Of a stretch of 64,000 nt of DNA, positions 5,301 through 59,282 are shown piece by piece. The notes beneath the pieces were generated by a model. That model worked only from the letters and a program-made list of their open reading frames with translations. It did no database searches and was not told where the DNA came from. The translations under genes and the position numbers were made by a program. The DNA is from a virus: the IMG/VR virus record IMGVR_UViG_3300005613_000011, positions 49,267 to 113,266 of that record, one strand, 5' to 3'. Positions within the stretch are counted from its first letter, which is position 1; the number at the start of each line of letters is the position of its first letter.

Positions 5301-8018
5301 TTTAGACTTAATGATACATCTTCTGTAGCTGCTGCTACGAGCAGGGGTTTATTGAGGTGGGGTGGTTCTGATTGGGAGGTCGCTATGGAGACGGATAGTG
5401 CTCCTCATAGAATCTATTATGCTTCCTCAATTGAAAAGTATTTTGCTTTAACAGGAACGTCTGTTTATGTCAGCAATGACGGACTCACATGGGTGCAATG
5501 TCTGGGATTTGACGGGATCTCTGTGGTTAGAGATATTACAGAGGATAGCAATAATAATGTTTTTGTTACAACGGACAGGGGTGTATATAAAACTAACGAA
5601 ACAGATCCATTTGCCGAGTATTTGTTTTGGGAACAAACATCACAAGTAGATTCTCTTACTTCCAATACTTATGCGATATGGAACGATATTACTAATAGTA
5701 GAATTGTAGTATCTGCTGAAAACGGATTATTCTCAACAGTAGATGATGGGAGTACCTGGAATGCAATTGTAGAGATAGATTCTGACGAAATGGTACAGTC
5801 GTTTCTCAGGGAAGGTGATTTAGTTTATGCTTTAACAAATAGTAGTGTTTGGAGGAAGCGTGTTACTGATGGAGAGTTTGAAGCGATAGCCTCTTTAAAT
5901 TCTGTTGCTGCCAGGAAGATATTAATATTCGAAGACAGGCTATGGATTACGACTAATGTTGGATTGTTGGTTTCTGATAGTAGCAGCAACATATATACGG
6001 ACTCAATTATTAGTTTGCAAGAGAGTATTCCAGGTATTAATTTTACACATGTGCCAGTTCCTGTTACTTCTTTAAACAGGAACAGTACATCTATAATTAT
6101 AGGCACTGATTCTAAAATATTTACCGGGACCGACACGGAGAAGGTCTCAGTCCTTTATGACGATACTTCTTCCACTATCCCGACTATATTTGTTAATTAT
6201 GAGATGTATGATATTGGTTTTACTTATTATACTGTTACCAATACTGTAAGGTTTGATCATTTTATCCCTCACGATTCTGTTGTCACTGTTGCCAATCAAT
6301 ACCAACACTACAGGGCCAGAAACAAGGGTTGGTTGGACAAGAGATATGACGCTGATTTAACTGTTTATCGGAACGGGCTTTTGTTGGCAAATGTTTCTGG
6401 AGATGATGCTCCTGCCGTTGCTTCGCTTTTGAATGTGGAATTTGAAGACTTTACCGAGATCGATTCTTATGTTAGTGGAGCTGAAGAACAGCAGGAACAG
6501 TTTAATACTGATGTCGATAATCTTGTTGCTGCTCAAGAGCAGGGAGTGACAGATCTACAGCCTTATATTTCTGACGCAGTTGATTCTTATAACAAGGTTT
6601 ATTCCAACGTTCACGGCAGGGTCAGGTTTGTTTCTGTTGAAGAGATAGATGATGAGAGTTACGTTATTTTTGAATACCAGAAAATACCTTTCGATTTTTA
6701 TCCTCAAATGTTGTCAGACTATGAAACAGTCCCTGAGATTCCCGACGTTCTCGCATCTGATGCTGATGGTGTTGTTAGTTGTAATGTGGTTAGCGGTGTT
6801 TTTAGTTTTTTGAGTTCTTACAATAAATATGATTTTTTGACGATTGACTTGAGAAATACAGCGTTTGGAGAGGACTTGGATAACAATCATCGAGAAATAG
6901 AAAACGGTTTGCAGTTGATCAACTCAGGCTTGTCTATGTCTATGGGCGAAGTCCAAGAGTCTAACTTGCTGAAAATGGGATTGTTTTTTGAAAGAGTGTG
7001 GACAGGAGATCAATGGGAAGTTGATGAATGTTTCTTGCCTATGCTTGCTACCTACAATCTCAGGTATAATCTAACTACGAATAATAGCTGGTACGATGTT
7101 TTGAATTCAACAGTTGATTATGCGGTACATGTTGACTATGACGATGTTGGTTTTGATTTTGATTATCCAACAGCCGTTTATTATGAATCTAATATTGGGA
7201 AGGTTTTGGTTGGTTGCAGGACTGGTGTTATAACAGTTGATACTACCGATTATTCGTTGGAGGTTTTGGATTTTAACGATTCCAAACAAGAATTTGTTAG
7301 AGAAATAAAAACATATGATAATATTTTGTATATTTTGACTGATGATAATTTGTATAGAAGTTCTGATCACGGTATCAATTGGTCGAGAGAGGAGTTACCT
7401 AATTTGAGTGGAAAGTTTTTACAATTTTCTAAGTTCAGGAACTTCTTTATTATTGCTACTGACAATGGTGTTTATTACAAGAGCCTGGTAGATGATTATT
7501 GGTATAGGTCTCTTGTGAATTCTGAGATAACTAAAATACACAGCGGGACGTATCTAGTCGCTATCAAGGACGGAGACAAGGTTTACTATAGTTCAAATGC
7601 TGTTGATTGGGTTTCTGGCGGTACTTTACTGGATAATGTCAGGGTAAATGCTATAGAGTCGTATAACGGCTTGTTGCTGCTTGCTACAGATCAAGGATTG
7701 AGGTATGATAATTCTACGTTTTATAGTGATGCTGCCGCTACTTCTTTAATTGATGTAGCTGTCGATTTTGATATATCGGTCGCTCTGGAGTTCAACGATG
7801 TGGCTGTAAAGTCTATTGATGGCGATCACGTTGGTGGAACTAGCGACGGTAATTATTATGTTTGGAACGGGTCTAGTTATAGCAGAACTGTTACGGACTT
7901 GGAATCTATACATAAGATAATTTATGTTAACGATGAATATTGGGCGTTTGGATATGATAGTGTTTGGATATCATCTATTAGTCATTCGATAAAAATAACA
8001 CTGGGAGTTCCTTTTTAA
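2301..8018 (+). CDS. Large putative virion/tail protein with about 6 FN3 domains and Asp-box (BNR) beta-propeller repeats
   Basis: FN3 signatures (ISWD...Y.VYRS...YTD...Y.YRVTSVD.GNES) and Asp-box-like motifs SNDGLTW, TVDDGSTW, SSDHGINW; GTG start. Confidence 0.7.
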   Translation: MPINTRYYGLTAFSLNDVYSASADLVRFNIIDSQLSSLSSFVGDGVIYGWDVRDVSPSGSLIIEVTAGIGISDRIVYRTFGDIRYTVADNTSVYVYMQKKFNYIGGFSPFSNIVTIQYEDNFPPPPPSSITVVGWDYNFVSISWDSIPSEEPDFSHYAVYRSTDNFATEAQIDTSTTNSYTDTTVVENTIYRYRVTSVDLTGNESNPSPSTGDITTLTNIIPPLDPYYILAFPGDEFLNIMWKASESVNTQRYELWIQELDDEYNPVGGVSVESLNPDVLSFKIENLVNGVFYRVTLYTVNSNNIYSSGINVMESPISNFGPEEVSSITLSDEQNVKNQYGIRLNIGFVPGVDPYNEFVTERYVITIIENGVITSEHIYVYNETSLFVDLFIVNGGYRPFLSSTDYIVKIEAEDEEGHLSNPVVNRIETSEYITPAAPTGLQSSQNSDGDLIFSWINSNSDFDYNEVSLIRTNLSNGQDVTIEDKTNYLKQSTYRIERADLALNSRYTITLRSISSTGIRSEPVRTGFDTLESITGTADIPTGLTALRGNGFVRLQWDKVTSTFPSQYKIWRAPYVTYGLSASDFSLVATISSDYTSYDDYTISTGGRYYYFVTTVDVYGRESLNPIDDNYFFYPLAFGYYRPDESQSQVSDLQAQADEHDVIVSWAETIDEFDGYEIWRSDGDDASWEKVGDVSKEFTVFIDENALLVGGQYYYMVRRFRNEGHLFVTNSFAEPVNSVLLAIVTARNGSISINTSVKENVDVFSTMLENFIENEVTNHSHDLASDRDLRIDLDKNVTVTDSDWETTDNIVFTTTKDIVGASDYVVWQAGEILSVPFEVDANAGTITFSEVLGSSAITLECVGLDETNNTLPGTKVGYPSATKAYSGRFPKEQLPAIDHDGRKEQELLPLQLPMVTSDGYGFGIEENQIYATRTANLIAADIGEEQEISGESIGSSITFYDIVDLSENISSGLKNWFPVFWVPKKWVPQRWFPGSEEEIVFRLNDTSSVAAATSRGLLRWGGSDWEVAMETDSAPHRIYYASSIEKYFALTGTSVYVSNDGLTWVQCLGFDGISVVRDITEDSNNNVFVTTDRGVYKTNETDPFAEYLFWEQTSQVDSLTSNTYAIWNDITNSRIVVSAENGLFSTVDDGSTWNAIVEIDSDEMVQSFLREGDLVYALTNSSVWRKRVTDGEFEAIASLNSVAARKILIFEDRLWITTNVGLLVSDSSSNIYTDSIISLQESIPGINFTHVPVPVTSLNRNSTSIIIGTDSKIFTGTDTEKVSVLYDDTSSTIPTIFVNYEMYDIGFTYYTVTNTVRFDHFIPHDSVVTVANQYQHYRARNKGWLDKRYDADLTVYRNGLLLANVSGDDAPAVASLLNVEFEDFTEIDSYVSGAEEQQEQFNTDVDNLVAAQEQGVTDLQPYISDAVDSYNKVYSNVHGRVRFVSVEEIDDESYVIFEYQKIPFDFYPQMLSDYETVPEIPDVLASDADGVVSCNVVSGVFSFLSSYNKYDFLTIDLRNTAFGEDLDNNHREIENGLQLINSGLSMSMGEVQESNLLKMGLFFERVWTGDQWEVDECFLPMLATYNLRYNLTTNNSWYDVLNSTVDYAVHVDYDDVGFDFDYPTAVYYESNIGKVLVGCRTGVITVDTTDYSLEVLDFNDSKQEFVREIKTYDNILYILTDDNLYRSSDHGINWSREELPNLSGKFLQFSKFRNFFIIATDNGVYYKSLVDDYWYRSLVNSEITKIHSGTYLVAIKDGDKVYYSSNAVDWVSGGTLLDNVRVNAIESYNGLLLLATDQGLRYDNSTFYSDAAATSLIDVAVDFDISVALEFNDVAVKSIDGDHVGGTSDGNYYVWNGSSYSRTVTDLESIHKIIYVNDEYWAFGYDSVWISSISHSIKITLGVPF

Positions 8019-8032
8019 GGATAAGAATATAA

Positions 8033-9025
8033 ATGGCAAGTATGTTAGTGGATGGCAAATTGTCTACTGGTACAAATTCAGGTTTAGTCAATGATGGTTG
8101 GGCTAATGCAAAACAGGGTGCAGCTGGTCTACAAACGGCAATAAACCAGGCAGATGCTGGAGACACGTTGTATCTTGTTAGAACTTTTGCTCTTACTGCT
8201 GCAATAGATATAGATATTAATCAGGGCGACGACGGTTCGCCTATTAGAGTTATTGGATACAATTATAATGAAGGTTCTCCTGTTTTAGATGGTTCAAGAG
8301 CGGTAGTTGATGCTAAAGGAACTGTTGCTAATTGTATTGTTGTTGATGGAAACAATCATTGGATTTGGGAAAATATAGAATTTAAAAATGCTACAGGTTC
8401 TAACCTTATAAACAATGCCGTGGATAATTATGCCAGAGATTGGTTTTTTATAAATTGTATTTCTCATGGTTCAGTATCTGGCGATGGTTGGGGGCCAGGG
8501 GATAGTGATTTTTATGATTGCAGATTTTTCTTTTGTAAAGCTTACGACAACGGAAATGATGGCATAAATATATATAGAGGTACTATTTTTGGTTGTACTA
8601 TTAATGATAATGGCAGATATGGGATTTATGGGAGAAAAACAGATACTACAAATTCAGTTATATATAATAATACGAGTTATGGTATATTTTCTGATCTTGG
8701 GAATAATGCTGCTTCTATAGATAATTGTGTTTTAAATAATAATGGTAATGCTGCTATTTATACGGAGGACATAGCATATGTTATTGGATGTAGGATAACG
8801 AATCATGCTGTTGGAATTTTAGGAGATGGAGGATCTACTGTTTTTAATTTTTGGAACTTTTTTAAAGATAATACGGTTAATAGTAGTAATATTACTGATA
8901 TCTATACTTTTCGTGGAGAAGATACAAGAATAACTAATGGTGTTACTGGTTATACCAATGTTAATAACGATAATTTTAATTTAATGCCTGATGCTGCTGG
9001 AAGGCGTAAAGAAATAGAGATTTAA
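8033..9025 (+). CDS. Right-handed parallel beta-helix (pectin-lyase-like) protein, probably virion-associated
   Basis: LQTAINQADAGDTLYL cap followed by repeated N/C-ladder coils (DNGNDGI, DNGRYGI, NNTSYGI, NNGNAAI). Confidence 0.7.
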   Translation: MASMLVDGKLSTGTNSGLVNDGWANAKQGAAGLQTAINQADAGDTLYLVRTFALTAAIDIDINQGDDGSPIRVIGYNYNEGSPVLDGSRAVVDAKGTVANCIVVDGNNHWIWENIEFKNATGSNLINNAVDNYARDWFFINCISHGSVSGDGWGPGDSDFYDCRFFFCKAYDNGNDGINIYRGTIFGCTINDNGRYGIYGRKTDTTNSVIYNNTSYGIFSDLGNNAASIDNCVLNNNGNAAIYTEDIAYVIGCRITNHAVGILGDGGSTVFNFWNFFKDNTVNSSNITDIYTFRGEDTRITNGVTGYTNVNNDNFNLMPDAAGRRKEIEI

Positions 9026-28669: not shown

Positions 28670-29170
28670 ATGAAAGAGATTTTAAACGAAAGGATCAAGT
28701 CAGAAATTTTATTTTTAATTGCAGAAGATGGTTCTACCATAGGTGCGGTTACTAGAGAAGAGGCGTTGCAGAGGTCGAGATCTGCCGGATTGGATCTCGT
28801 GCTCATTTCGCATAAAAATAATGATAAACCACCGGTTTGTAAGATATTGGATTATGGTAGGATGAAATATGAAGAGAAGAAAAACAACCACAATAAGAAG
28901 AAATCGGTAGTTACGAAGGAGATTAGGCTCAGAAATGCTATGAATATTTCAGATCATGATCTTGATATCAAGCATAGGCAGATGAGAAAATTTCTTGAGA
29001 AGAAAAATAAAGTAAAATATGTATTTGTTGTGAAGGGAAGACAGCGTAGAATGATGGACGAAGCAAAAGAAAAATTAAATGAAAATTTGTCTCAGTTTAA
29101 AGATATTGCTACGTGGGATGAACCAAAAACATCTGATGGTACAATAATTGTATTGTTGTCCCCAAAGTGA
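28670..29170 (+). CDS. infC: Translation initiation factor IF-3
   Basis: LNERIK, GLDLVLIS...PPVCKILDYGRMKYE, KEIRL...ISDHDL..K, GRQ. Confidence 0.93.
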   Translation: MKEILNERIKSEILFLIAEDGSTIGAVTREEALQRSRSAGLDLVLISHKNNDKPPVCKILDYGRMKYEEKKNNHNKKKSVVTKEIRLRNAMNISDHDLDIKHRQMRKFLEKKNKVKYVFVVKGRQRRMMDEAKEKLNENLSQFKDIATWDEPKTSDGTIIVLLSPK

Positions 29171-38640: not shown

Positions 38641-38750
38641 ACTTGTGTATTACTTATAAGGCATAAATATCCTTTAAATAATTTGATAATTTTTTATATT
38701 ATTTGCCGATAATTAATTGAAATAATTTAGAATTTATAGGAGTATTGGGC

Positions 38751-39020
38751 ATCCCCTTATACGAGTATTTCCATCCCGAGACAGGCGAAATATTTGAAGT
38801 GTTACGTCCGATAAAGGACAGAAAGAAAAAACACGAAGCTCCAGACGGGGTTATGTGCGATCCAGTAGAAGTTCCTGGCAGCATGGGATATTGCGGAGCA
38901 TCCGAGAACAGTAGAGAAGGGTTTCAGATGGACCCAGAACTGTATAAGAAGCGAAACCCTAAATTTGTGCGTTATAGGGATGGTCATCGGGAAAGATACG
39001 ACCCGACTAAACATTATTGA
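38751..39020 (+). CDS. FmdB-like zinc-ribbon/regulatory protein (degenerate Cys), probable ATC start
   Basis: (M)PLYEY...GEIFEVL N-terminus; AGGAG 8 nt upstream of ATC 38751. Confidence 0.6.
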   Translation: MPLYEYFHPETGEIFEVLRPIKDRKKKHEAPDGVMCDPVEVPGSMGYCGASENSREGFQMDPELYKKRNPKFVRYRDGHRERYDPTKHY

Positions 39021-55987: not shown

Positions 55988-56137
55988 AAAGGATATAGCT
56001 CAAGAATACTAAGAAAAGAATTTAAAGAGTTAAGGAAAATACCTACCCTCTGGACACGCTCTTATTATTGCGAATCTGTAAGACATATATCACAAGAAAC
56101 TGTTAAAAAATATATAGAAGACCAAAAAGGTAAATGA
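55988..56137 (+). pseudogene. tnpA: C-terminal fragment of TnpA (Y1 transposase)
   Basis: KGYSSRILRKEF...LWTRSYY...VKKYIEDQK; the HUH-containing N-terminus is missing; ATGA overlap with tnpB. Confidence 0.85.
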
Positions 56138-57297
56138 TAATCACCTACAAGTACAAATTATACACTAACAAAAAGAATAAATATCTTAACAATAAAATAG
56201 ATATTTCAGGTATAATTTGGAACCATTGTATAGCTCTACATAAAAGATATTATAAAATATATAACAAGTATCTTAATCCTTATCAACTTCAAAAACACAT
56301 AACTAAACTCAAGAAATTAGATAAATATAAGTTCTGGAGATTAGTTAATTCACAAACTATACAAGATATCACAGAAAGAGCTGATAAGTCTTACAAACAG
56401 TTCTTCAGCAAGATTAAGAAGAAACAAAAAGCAAGACCTCCTAAATTTCAGAAAGTTAAGAAATATAAATCTATCACTTTTAAACAAACAGGTTATGAAC
56501 TGTTAGAAGATAATAAAATCAGAATACAAAATAGAACTTTCAAATATTCTAAGAGTAGAATAGCAGAAGGTGATATCAAGACATTAATAATTAAACGTAC
56601 TGATTCAGGTATCTATTTCTACGTTGTGTTTGATAAGAAATTAAAGGCTCCTACAAAAGATTTCAAGTTGGGTAAAATCACAGGGATCGATGTAGGATTA
56701 AAGACTTTTCTAACTTTATCGAACGGTAACAGAGAAGAGTCTCCTGAGTTTTTTAAGTCTAAACTGAAGATGATCAAACGATTACACAAGAAGTTATCTA
56801 GTAAGAAGAAAGGTTCTAATAGAAAGGAAAAGGCCAGAATCAATCTTTCTAAAGAATATGAGAAGATCGCTAACAAAAGAAAAGATTATTTCTTTAAATT
56901 AGCTAATGATCTGACTAAAGAATATTCTTATATCTTTATTGAAGATTTAGATGTTGAATTATGGAAAAAGAAATGGGGAAGAAAAACCTCAGATATTGCT
57001 ATTAGTGAATTCTTTAGAATCTTAGAATATCAAGGGAAGAAAAACGGTTGTATAGTTTATAAGATTAATAGATTCTTTCCTAGTTCTAAATTGTGTAATA
57101 AGTGCGGTTGGAAGAATGATTATTTAGCATTAAAAGACAGAATTTTTAAATGTAAAATCTGTGGTAATAAAATTGACAGAGATTTGAATGCTAGTATAAA
57201 TATAAAAAGAGAAGGGGCATCTTCTCTTAGATTAGACAGTGTAAATCTTTCGTTAGAAAGTAATTGTTGTTTGACTCTAGAATCCCACGTACTTTAG
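56134..57297 (+). CDS. tnpB: TnpB RNA-guided nuclease, catalytic D/E/D intact
   Basis: TYKYKLY, GIDVG, IEDL, PSSKLCNKC...CKIC, DRDLNA. Confidence 0.93.
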   Translation: MIITYKYKLYTNKKNKYLNNKIDISGIIWNHCIALHKRYYKIYNKYLNPYQLQKHITKLKKLDKYKFWRLVNSQTIQDITERADKSYKQFFSKIKKKQKARPPKFQKVKKYKSITFKQTGYELLEDNKIRIQNRTFKYSKSRIAEGDIKTLIIKRTDSGIYFYVVFDKKLKAPTKDFKLGKITGIDVGLKTFLTLSNGNREESPEFFKSKLKMIKRLHKKLSSKKKGSNRKEKARINLSKEYEKIANKRKDYFFKLANDLTKEYSYIFIEDLDVELWKKKWGRKTSDIAISEFFRILEYQGKKNGCIVYKINRFFPSSKLCNKCGWKNDYLALKDRIFKCKICGNKIDRDLNASINIKREGASSLRLDSVNLSLESNCCLTLESHVL

Positions 57298-57328: not shown

Positions 57329-57799
57329 ATGACTGTTAATATGACAAAGAAAAAAGTAGATGCCAAGAGACTTGGCGATGTTGAAAGCGTAAAGAATATG
57401 CAAAGAAAATTTGCTGCTGCTGCAAGATATAATCACGTTAGGGTACAGTTTCCAAGCGGAGAAGAAAAACATTTGCTTTTTACAGACTGGCAAATTAAAA
57501 GAGGATTGGAAAGGGCTAGGAAAAATCCAGAAGATCTTCCGAAAGTGACTTGGATCCGTGATATGATTGATGAGGTAAAAATATTTGATACTCAACGTTT
57601 GGCCGATTTGCAGGAAGTAATAAATAGCAATAATCTTCCTGTAGCTGCGAAGAAATATAATCATATAAGAGTTGTAATGGACGGAGAAGAACATCATTTA
57701 TTATTTACTGATAATGATATAATTGTTGCTCTTGAAAGAGCAGATAAGAATCCAGAGGACTTGCCGAAAGTCTCATGGTTGAAAGATATATTTGACTAG
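57329..57799 (+). CDS. Hypothetical protein made of two tandem ~70-aa repeats
   Basis: YNH.RV...GEE.HLLFTD..I...LERA.KNPEDLPKV.W..D..D occurs twice. Confidence 0.75.
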   Translation: MTVNMTKKKVDAKRLGDVESVKNMQRKFAAAARYNHVRVQFPSGEEKHLLFTDWQIKRGLERARKNPEDLPKVTWIRDMIDEVKIFDTQRLADLQEVINSNNLPVAAKKYNHIRVVMDGEEHHLLFTDNDIIVALERADKNPEDLPKVSWLKDIFD

Positions 57800-57817
57800 A
57801 CGAAAGGAAGGTGTATC

Positions 57818-58219
57818 ATCAGCGAATACCATATAGTAGAGGTTGGCTTACAAGACGAGAAATGTCTTGTTGAAGCATTGCAAGAGATGGGTTATAAACC
57901 ACAGGTCCATAAGGATGCTGTGCAATTGCATGGTTATCAAGGAGACAAGAGAAAGCAACGCGCTCATATTGTTATACCGAGATCTCAGGTAGGTAGTGCA
58001 GCCAATGACGTTGGTTTCGAGAAAAAGGGCAATGAATATATATTGCATATTTCGGAATATGACAAGAGACTAAAGCGGTTAGACAAGAATAAATTGAAGC
58101 AGATTTATGCAAAAAATAAAATAGAAAAGACATTATTAAAGAAGGCTGGCAAGTACAAGTTGAAATCCAAGACTGTTGATGAAAAAGGAAGAATTCGCAT
58201 TAAAATAGGTGTAAGATGA
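57818..58219 (+). CDS. DUF1257/Ycf35-like protein, probable ATC start
   Basis: (M)SEYHIVEV..QDEKCLVEALQEMGY...L.GYQG...NDVGF...LKQIYA...GRIRI. Confidence 0.7.
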   Translation: MSEYHIVEVGLQDEKCLVEALQEMGYKPQVHKDAVQLHGYQGDKRKQRAHIVIPRSQVGSAANDVGFEKKGNEYILHISEYDKRLKRLDKNKLKQIYAKNKIEKTLLKKAGKYKLKSKTVDEKGRIRIKIGVR

Positions 58220-58302
58220 TGAGTGAGAGCAATTTATTTAAATTTGGTAAGAAATATAAATATTTATAATAATGTTGTCTGAAGAAGAAAGGCTGGTGTA
58301 TC

Positions 58303-58701
58303 ATTAGCGAATCTATTAGCGTAGCAATAAACCTGACGAACGAAATTTGTCTTGTAGAAGCCTTAAAGGAAATGGGTTTTGTTGTTGACATATTTAAGTC
58401 TCCTCAGAAAGTGCAAGGATATTATACCAGTAAAAAAAATAAGAAGGCGCATGTAATTTTAAAGAAAAAATCAAATAAAATTTATGCAGATATTGGTTTT
58501 GAAAAGGTTGATGATAAATATGTTATCCATATGGATTCTATGGATAGTCGTAAGTTGAATAAGAAAAAGTTGATACAGTTGTATGCAAAATCTCGTTTAA
58601 AATTCGAAATAAAAAGAAAGAACGCTAAGTATGCTCTGAGATCAGAGACAGTAGATAAGGATGGTAGGATTCGTATAAAAATTGGTGTCCGTGGAGTTTA
58701 A
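58303..58701 (+). CDS. DUF1257/Ycf35-like paralog, probable ATT start
   Basis: (M)SESISVAINLTNEICLVEALKEMGF...ADIGF...LIQLYA...GRIRIKIGVR aligns end to end with 57818..58219. Confidence 0.7.
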   Translation: MSESISVAINLTNEICLVEALKEMGFVVDIFKSPQKVQGYYTSKKNKKAHVILKKKSNKIYADIGFEKVDDKYVIHMDSMDSRKLNKKKLIQLYAKSRLKFEIKRKNAKYALRSETVDKDGRIRIKIGVRGV

Positions 58702-59282
58702 TGTCAAAAAGGCGCAATAAGAATTTAAAAGATCTTCGTAAAAAGCTACGCAAAACAAGAAGAAGACAGATCGAACTTGAAGAGAGATTGAGAGAAAAAA
58801 TATTAACATTTGATGCACCTGAGTTGTATCTTAAGTCAAAAGAATTGAAAGAAGGAGATGATCTCGTTTTTATTAACGATATGAGGGATGTTTTAAAGGT
58901 CACTAAAATTGGTGTAGGTCTTGCTGCCTGTCAAATAGGGGTTAATAAGAGAGTTTGTGTTTTAAGGTTTAGGCCAAGGGACTATTCCATAATAACGTTA
59001 ATTAATCCTGTTATAATTGAGAAATCTAGTGTTAATGTTGTTGGTGAAGAGGGGTGTTTGTCTTTTCCTGGTATTGTTTCTAAAGTTAAAAGACCATATA
59101 AAATAAAAGTTAAATATCTTAAAGAAGATTTTACAGAATCTATCGCTGAATTTGTAAGTTTTGAGGCAAGGGTTGTTTGTCACGAAATTGATCATTTTGA
59201 CGGAATTTGTGCGGTAGGAGATAAATACAAAGAAACAAACAGGAGTGATATTGAAAGACAAGCAGGATCGACTACTGTTTGA
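58701..59282 (+). CDS. def: Peptide deformylase with basic N-terminal extension
   Basis: GVGLAACQIG, EGCLS, HEIDH. Confidence 0.93.
   Translation: MSKRRNKNLKDLRKKLRKTRRRQIELEERLREKILTFDAPELYLKSKELKEGDDLVFINDMRDVLKVTKIGVGLAACQIGVNKRVCVLRFRPRDYSIITLINPVIIEKSSVNVVGEEGCLSFPGIVSKVKRPYKIKVKYLKEDFTESIAEFVSFEARVVCHEIDHFDGICAVGDKYKETNRSDIERQAGSTTV

Follow-up and report, generated by a model that had tools for sequence, protein, structure and literature searches.

In Escherichia coli, infC, the gene for initiation factor IF-3, starts with AUU and is autoregulated through IF-3, and pcnB starts with AUU as well. In both, as we propose for the locus described here, the near-cognate codon ties translation to the proofreading of start codons by IF-3, and output is low or conditional. 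Other bacterial genes likewise tune the translation of a single gene by a rare start codon: the GTC start of Streptomyces sigR is repressed by IF-3, which makes the connection with this factor explicit (PMC5472188), and Enterococcus faecalis ebpA has an ATT start (PMC4447247). Within IF-3, R25 is invariant in bacteria and touches the elbow of the initiator tRNA; R25A did not restore start-codon fidelity in an E. coli strain with the IF-3 C-terminal domain only, and the triple mutant R25A/Q33A/R66A raised AUU initiation about 5-fold in E. coli (PMC9723500). In S. aureus, extended Shine-Dalgarno (SD) motifs drive initiation by long pairing with the 16S tail (PMC13009471).

Phage-encoded IF-3 has been catalogued since 2020 with no known role. 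The IF-3s of huge and jumbo phages have been proposed to redirect host translation (Al-Shayeb 2020, PMC7162821; Sharanji, PMC11895373), but these papers give no mechanism and no link to start codons, and in the second it is said that the role of IF-3 in phages cannot be stated (Sharanji, PMC11895373). Both phage IF-3 (PMC7162821, PMC11895373) and IF-3 control of near-cognate starts (infC; sigR, PMC5472188) are therefore already known; our literature searches found no paper linking phage IF-3 to phage non-AUG starts or reporting the loss of Arg25.

Here we describe a locus of an uncultured phage in a window of 64,000 nt (bases 49267-113266 of one 113,266-bp viral contig, G000; 35% G+C), in which a divergent IF-3 is encoded together with genes that appear to start at AUC or AUU (AUH; ATH in the DNA). 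Unlike in infC, the putative AUH starts are on phage genes and not on the IF-3 gene, AUC is used too, and the SDs are extended. Unlike sigR and ebpA, which depend on the cell's own IF-3, the genes here are accompanied by a divergent IF-3 that the virus supplies. The IF-3s of this phage clade are substituted at the same invariant arginine as the E. coli R25A mutants (PMC9723500), but the changes arose naturally and are of several kinds (F, T, I, V, M, D, N, L), where the mutants have Ala; and unlike the extended SDs of S. aureus (PMC13009471), those found here are gene-specific and paired with a non-canonical start codon. The locus offers a testable pairing of a divergent IF-3, changed at a fidelity residue, with a few genes whose AUC/AUU starts would sense it. 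Should the phage IF-3 indeed license such starts, it would be to translation what a phage-specific sigma factor is to transcription, and a phage IF-3 would for the first time have an assigned function.

Two DUF1257 genes without a canonical start codon

The source contig is probably a fragment of a huge-phage genome, because related contigs of ~100 kb have a CheckV completeness of only 14-50% and complete relatives measure ~500-550 kb. The GenBank phages that we searched contained no DNA relative of it and no DUF1257 relative. Two paralogs of Pfam family DUF1257 are encoded in the window (E 2.6e-10 and 4.2e-7; 40.9 and 30.6 bits against a gathering cut-off of 22.2) next to a peptide deformylase gene (Table 1), and the synteny of DUF1257, deformylase and radical SAM genes is kept in L001-L007.

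Table 1. Positions in the window of the genes, proposed start sites and ribosome-binding sites discussed in the text
Feature	Position	Strand	Details
Phage IF-3	28670..29170	+	ATG start; Pfam IF3_N 79.2, IF3_C 60.9 bits
AGGAG SD of third gene	38738..38742	+	8 nt before ATC 38751, just 2 nt before TTG 38745
Small protein IPLYEYFHPETGEIF... (third gene)	38751..39020	+	proposed start ATC 38751
Extended SD GAAAGGAAGGTG, paralog 1	57802..57813	+	duplex -15.9 kcal/mol
DUF1257 paralog 1	57818..58219	+	proposed start ATC 57818, stop TGA 58217; Pfam PF06868
TTG, first canonical codon of paralog 1	57878..57880	+	internal Leu codon (TTA in paralog 2), no conserved start
Extended SD GAAAGGCTGGTG, paralog 2	58287..58298	+	duplex -14.2 kcal/mol
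DUF1257 paralog 2	58303..58701	+	proposed start ATT 58303, preceded by ATC 58300; stop TAA 58699
Peptide deformylase	58701..59282	+	Pfam PF01327, E 5.5e-37; start overlaps paralog 2 stop; conserved neighbour

A sequence-only reading of this DNA had pointed out that in both paralogs the stretch from the upstream stop to the conserved N-terminus is free of in-frame ATG, GTG and TTG codons, and our analysis bears this out. In paralog 1 the stop TAG (57797-57799) is followed by ACG AAA GGA AGG TGT ATC(57815) ATC(57818) AGC GAA, in which the SD leaves too little spacing for the ATC at 57815, and the first canonical codon is the TTG listed in Table 1. In paralog 2 a double stop, TAATAA (58267-58272), is followed nine codons on by ATC(58300) ATT(58303) AGC GAA; the first canonical codon is ATG 58372, and the sole near-cognate codon upstream, CTG 58279, is without an SD. 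The start context that the same reading had seen in both paralogs, GAAAGG-NN-GGTGTATC-ATH-AGCGAAT, is identical at 23 of 26 bases, despite saturated synonymous sites just downstream (pS 0.83).

When homologues are aligned, a check proposed with that reading, the isoleucine codon falls where relatives have methionine: ATC 57818 and ATT 58303 line up precisely with Met1 in the MSE[YF]H relatives, the form in which most of the 29 database relatives begin. Several relatives are called with an odd extension (..RCIISEYH) or are cut back to the Met of EMGY, as would be expected from a gene caller when no canonical start exists; for annotation this means that standard gene callers shorten such genes or extend them from spurious starts. 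The N-terminus that is lost in the shortened calls is under purifying selection, with a pN/pS of 0.3-0.5 at a pS of 0.7-1.0 for codons 2-20 between ATH genes (0.35 for paralog 2 against paralog 1), while the codons just before ATH vary, save those that spell the SD. In an AlphaFold2 model (pLDDT 84), residues 4-11 form a strand and residues 14-23 a helix, and both elements, strand 1 and helix 1 of the model, would be lost if translation began at TTG 57878 or ATG 58372. As to what the domain does, neither PHROGs nor the literature gives a function for DUF1257, Foldseek returned no PDB match at E <= 0.001, and the best VIA-align match (Z 5.8), to a KA1-like alpha+beta fold, is uninformative as to function.

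Other ways of reading the upstream region were tried and rejected. Read-through of the stop, or fusion with the upstream gene, conflicts with the TAATAA that precedes paralog 2 and with the upstream gene not being adjacent in L001 and L004. A start at the out-of-frame GTG 57811 followed by a frameshift would use a frame that is not conserved. The TATCAT over the initiation region of paralog 1 can be taken for part of a promoter (TTGACT-16-TATCAT, 57792-57819), but this is not conserved in relatives. A second promoter-like element, TTGTCT-18-TATCAT (58275-58304), overlaps the initiation region of paralog 2 and is not conserved either. The AT-rich stretch gave 11 promoter-like matches against 6.1 expected, and the hexamers over both initiation regions are probably chance.

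Between the paralogs lies a 17-codon upstream open reading frame, MMSESNLFKFGKKYKYL (MMSES...; 58216..58269, + strand), which overlaps the stop of paralog 1 as ATGA, is in the frame of paralog 2 and ends at the TAATAA, 31 nt before ATT 58303. Its MSES beginning is similar to the ISES with which paralog 2 opens, and the frame may be either a relic or a means of coupling. L003 and L007 do not conserve it and have promoters in that gap instead.

ATC and ATT recur at the start codon in one huge-phage clade

We surveyed the start codon in the DNA of 39 IMG/VR loci and found ATT in L002, L009, L011 and L012, ATC in L006 and L014, GTG in L004 and L005, TTG in L033 and ATG in all others. Tandem second paralogs add an ATT (L003b) and an ATC (L007b), in a AGGTGTATYATH context as in the window. 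Together with both window genes, ATT or ATC stands at the start codon in 10 of the 16 genes of one huge-phage clade and in none of ~80 homologues elsewhere: no ATH was found at the DUF1257 start codon of viral loci outside the clade, or at that of 54 loci from bacterial genomes (ATG in 47, GTG in 7). L006, L009/L011, L003b and L007b have no canonical codon between the upstream stop and the ATH. L002 and L012 carry an in-frame ATG 5-6 codons upstream of it, and L014 a GTG inside the SD; in these three, and in the third gene discussed below with its TTG 38745, a slightly longer product is conceivable.

In a maximum-likelihood tree the ATH genes are intermingled with ATG and GTG genes inside the MSE[YF]H clade, with at least 3 changes of start codon forced by well-supported branches and 7 on the best tree. 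Judging by these comparisons, the start pattern in the DUF1257 paralogs is more than chance, because the isoleucine codon aligns with Met1, ATH recurs only in this clade and the SDs are the strongest of all gene starts found in the genome (see below).

The ATH second paralogs of L003 and L007 are each preceded by a near-perfect sigma-70 promoter, TTGACA-17-TATAAT within the gap L003:10403-10509 and TTGAAA-16-TATAAT within the gap L007:10412-10509, which pairs a strong promoter with a weak start codon.

Extended Shine-Dalgarno sites precede the DUF1257 ATH codons

Duplex energies were computed against the 16S tail GAUCACCUCCUUUCU. By the two values for the DUF1257 paralogs (Table 1), no other gene start found in the genome has so strong an SD, and 49 confident ATG starts in it have a median of -3.8 kcal/mol; the canonical alternatives are weak, at -2.0 kcal/mol for TTG 57878 and -1.8 for ATG 58372. 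Across the clade, the median is -12.8 kcal/mol for the 10 ATH starts versus -6.4 for the 8 ATG/GTG orthologues (Mann-Whitney p = 0.002, with no correction for phylogeny). The register is constant in the DUF1257 ATH genes (GGTG + 3-4 nt), and all ATH cases have a ribosome-binding site at working distance, either GGTG + 3-4 nt or GGAG + 6-8 nt, with energies from -8.2 to -16.5 kcal/mol. On these computed energies, the strong SD is best seen as compensating for the weak ATH codon. RNA structure at the initiation regions gave z-scores of -1.5 to +1.6, with no conserved structure.

A third gene, and the rarity of ATH starts

A third case had been suggested at 38751, and it proved real: at the same codon four relatives of this small protein have ATT (L050), ATC (L052), ATG (L051) and ATG-ATT (L053), and in L050 and L052 there is no canonical start after the upstream stop. 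The nuance in the window is the TTG at 38745, in frame and two codons upstream of the ATC.

The gene class with ATH starts that had been postulated is small and made up of two families only, with ATH in 10/16 DUF1257 genes and 3/5 genes of the 38751 family. A search for conserved N-termini without a start revealed no further case among 54 genes shared by G000 and the complete relative G010, and no real case among 157 genes shared by G010 and G008; apart from the known cases, all that these comparisons turned up was spurious extensions, 5 against 5. SD-anchored scans of G000 and G010, which had also been proposed as a check, gave no ATH enrichment beyond these genes, and ATH starts are rare even in G010, an IF-3-positive genome. 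ATH starts are gene-specific and not genome-wide. A fourth candidate, G000:C1:23698-24114 (L138:698-1114), has an AGGAG 6 nt before an ATC and 15 nt before the first TTG; an ATC start is possible there but ambiguous, relatives starting at an ATG further in.

We found no tRNA in G000, and a special initiator tRNA was dismissed, since the complete relative G010 has none with a GAU anticodon: one of its 29 tRNAs is an ordinary elongator tRNA-Ile(GAU). Initiator-like tRNAs (CAU anticodon, 1:72 mismatch) do occur in G010 (L056-L083), at 180002-180078, and in G008, at L145:1475-1550. They have two of the three anticodon-stem G-C pairs that IF-3 inspects, and as a link to IF-3 this feature was dropped, being present in the IF-3-less G008 and not just in the IF-3-positive G010.

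The clade encodes an IF-3 without Arg25

The gene at 28670 had been read as IF-3, and rightly so: it encodes both IF-3 domains in one protein, joined by a linker, and the product aligns over its full length with the solved IF-3 structures from E. coli, G. stearothermophilus and T. thermophilus. In these and in MAFFT alignments its Phe15 occupies the position of the invariant Arg25 of bacterial IF-3 (E. coli numbering). Eleven relatives have T, I, V, M, D, N, N, M, N, D and L in that column, so that none of the 12 clade IF-3s has an arginine at position 25, the remainder of the N-terminal domain being conserved. Arg25 is present in 109/109 bacterial-type database matches with a residue in that column and is also kept in six other jumbo-phage IF-3s, namely those of Escherichia phage Ecwhy_1, Agrobacterium phage Atu_ph07, Sinorhizobium phage Phosso and three uncultured huge phages. 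By its sequence, the clade protein is an IF-3 homologue, but an atypical one.

An analogy with infC does not extend to the phage IF-3 gene itself, which begins with ATG and not AUU. The conserved IF-3 N-terminus has a Met, read from the protein and presumably ATG, in 9/11 relatives (the exceptions are L042 and L043), and most IF-3 genes of the clade appear from this to be without the AUU autoregulatory device of bacterial infC. At L040:1453-1894, on the contig of L014, the N- and C-terminal domains of IF-3 are in different frames, with the shift at ~1692-1694; the cause may be a frameshift, decay into a pseudogene or faulty assembly. The closest bacterial IF-3s to the window protein are from Polyangiaceae (Myxococcota), at ~43% identity, a weak hint at a host or donor for this phage of 35% G+C.

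An IF3_C search found IF-3 on 8/8 testable contigs with an ATH-start DUF1257 gene (five with an ATH first copy, G000, and L003 and L007 with ATH second paralogs), and the contigs of the 38751 family are IF-3-positive as well. On 11 contigs without IF-3, 7 of which are rated at least 80% complete, the DUF1257 starts are all canonical (0/11 ATH). At the same time, L003, L004, L005 and L007 are IF-3-positive and use ATG or GTG at a DUF1257 gene, and the association is inseparable from descent because every IF-3-positive contig belongs to one clade. The link between IF-3 and ATH starts is suggestive. For the start-codon circuit through phage IF-3 that the sequence-only reading had put forward, this leaves co-occurrence and the clade-wide loss of Arg25 in its favour, with common descent as a confounder. 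That reading had also left it undecided whether the factor shuts off or licenses these genes; of the two, licensing is favoured and shut-off less likely, because the clade IF-3 has lost Arg25, which is needed for start-codon fidelity.

Proposed mechanism and alternatives

The best overall explanation, which we regard as probable, is a gene-specific AUH start with an extended SD, the output of which is set by IF-3 proofreading. Translation would start at the near-cognate isoleucine codon (AUC 57818, AUU 58303, AUC 38751), which the ordinary initiator tRNA would decode as fMet, and in the DUF1257 genes the extended SD, pairing with most of the 16S 3' tail and placed at GGTG + 4 nt, would offset the weak codon. 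That both DUF1257 paralogs and the 38751 gene start at AUC or AUU is, on the comparative evidence, very likely. The output of such an AUH signal should depend on how strictly IF-3 proofreads start codons, and a phage IF-3 without the Arg25 contact to the initiator-tRNA elbow would, we infer, proofread less strictly, so that AUH mRNAs might be efficiently translated only once the phage factor occupies the 30S subunits. A licensing step of this kind is a tentative proposal, and the reading in full, with the clade IF-3 as a loose proofreader and selected AUC/AUU mRNAs with extended SDs translated well only on phage-factor ribosomes, seems somewhat doubtful.

The main rival is that the weak start merely sets low expression, with IF-3 a bystander. 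AUC and AUU would then be real and either hold expression low, as in pcnB and EbpA, or drift neutrally, a very strong SD making the start codon nearly irrelevant, and the phage IF-3 would be an unrelated marker of the clade. The start codon does flip often among ATG, GTG, ATT and ATC, canonical DUF1257 starts occur in IF-3-positive genomes too, and the co-occurrence follows phylogeny as described above; but relaxed proofreading should scatter ATH over many genes, and it is found in two families and in 0/157 of the G010/G008 genes, while the clade-wide loss of an otherwise invariant R25 would need an explanation of its own. We consider such drift a serious possibility, if not a likely one. A shut-off timer, in which a phage IF-3 with an ATG start and no autoregulation raises proofreading and the AUH genes are translated early only, would draw on the established repression of AUU starts by IF-3 in excess, known from infC autoregulation, and it agrees with the ATG, not AUU, at the start of the phage infC genes. 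Reduced re-initiation upon overexpression of IF-3 (PMC2268962) also counts for it. Against this, R25 loss predicts weaker and not stronger discrimination, and the ATH paralog in L003 and L007 has its own consensus promoter, which suggests that high expression is wanted; a timer is improbable.

The remaining alternatives deny the AUH start itself. If translation began at the first canonical codon (TTG 57878, ATG 58372), the proteins would be truncated and the upstream homology a decaying remnant, much as gene callers have treated the window's own protein (P0001) and several relatives listed as short forms from the M of EMGY. Neither codon has an SD at the energies given above, paralog 2 has TTA in place of TTG 57878, many relatives have Leu for the Met of EMGY, and the upstream codons are under purifying selection; strand 1 and helix 1 would be lost and the strongest gene-start SDs in the genome left without a function, which makes truncation very unlikely. 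We give as little credence to a start a few codons upstream (ACG 57800, CTG 58279 or the ATG of L002/L012), with the SD-like sequence coding for Lys-Gly-Arg-Cys. An in-frame ATG does exist in L002 and L012, and P0018 and P0024 have been called as MRCII and MGRCII, but these codons all lack an SD, the residues up to the isoleucine, save the SD-spelling ones, vary (I, L, P, T, N, D, Y), and in L006, L009 and L003b no usable codon lies between the isoleucine codon and a stop 3-9 codons upstream of it. As for a sequencing or assembly error that turned ATG into ATC or ATT, we saw nothing in its favour; the two different isoleucine codons in the window had already been held against it, and the same state in independent assemblies from different samples leaves it a negligible chance.

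Neighbouring and other open frames

Outside the window, an 83-codon open frame with a positive coding score (G000:C1:8291-8542) goes 51 codons without a canonical start; it opens where gene 7542-8297 stops, in the -1 frame, and is possibly a frameshift extension or another non-canonical start. Within the window, the protein encoded upstream of paralog 1 (57329-57799) matches no Pfam or PHROG family and is built from a ~70-aa repeat present twice, ..H[VI]RV...GEE.HLLFTD..I..LERA.KNPEDLPKV.W..D. Directly upstream of the DUF1257 operon, at 56134-57297, is a TnpB/IS605 OrfB gene with OrfB_IS605 and Cas12f1-like TNB domains.
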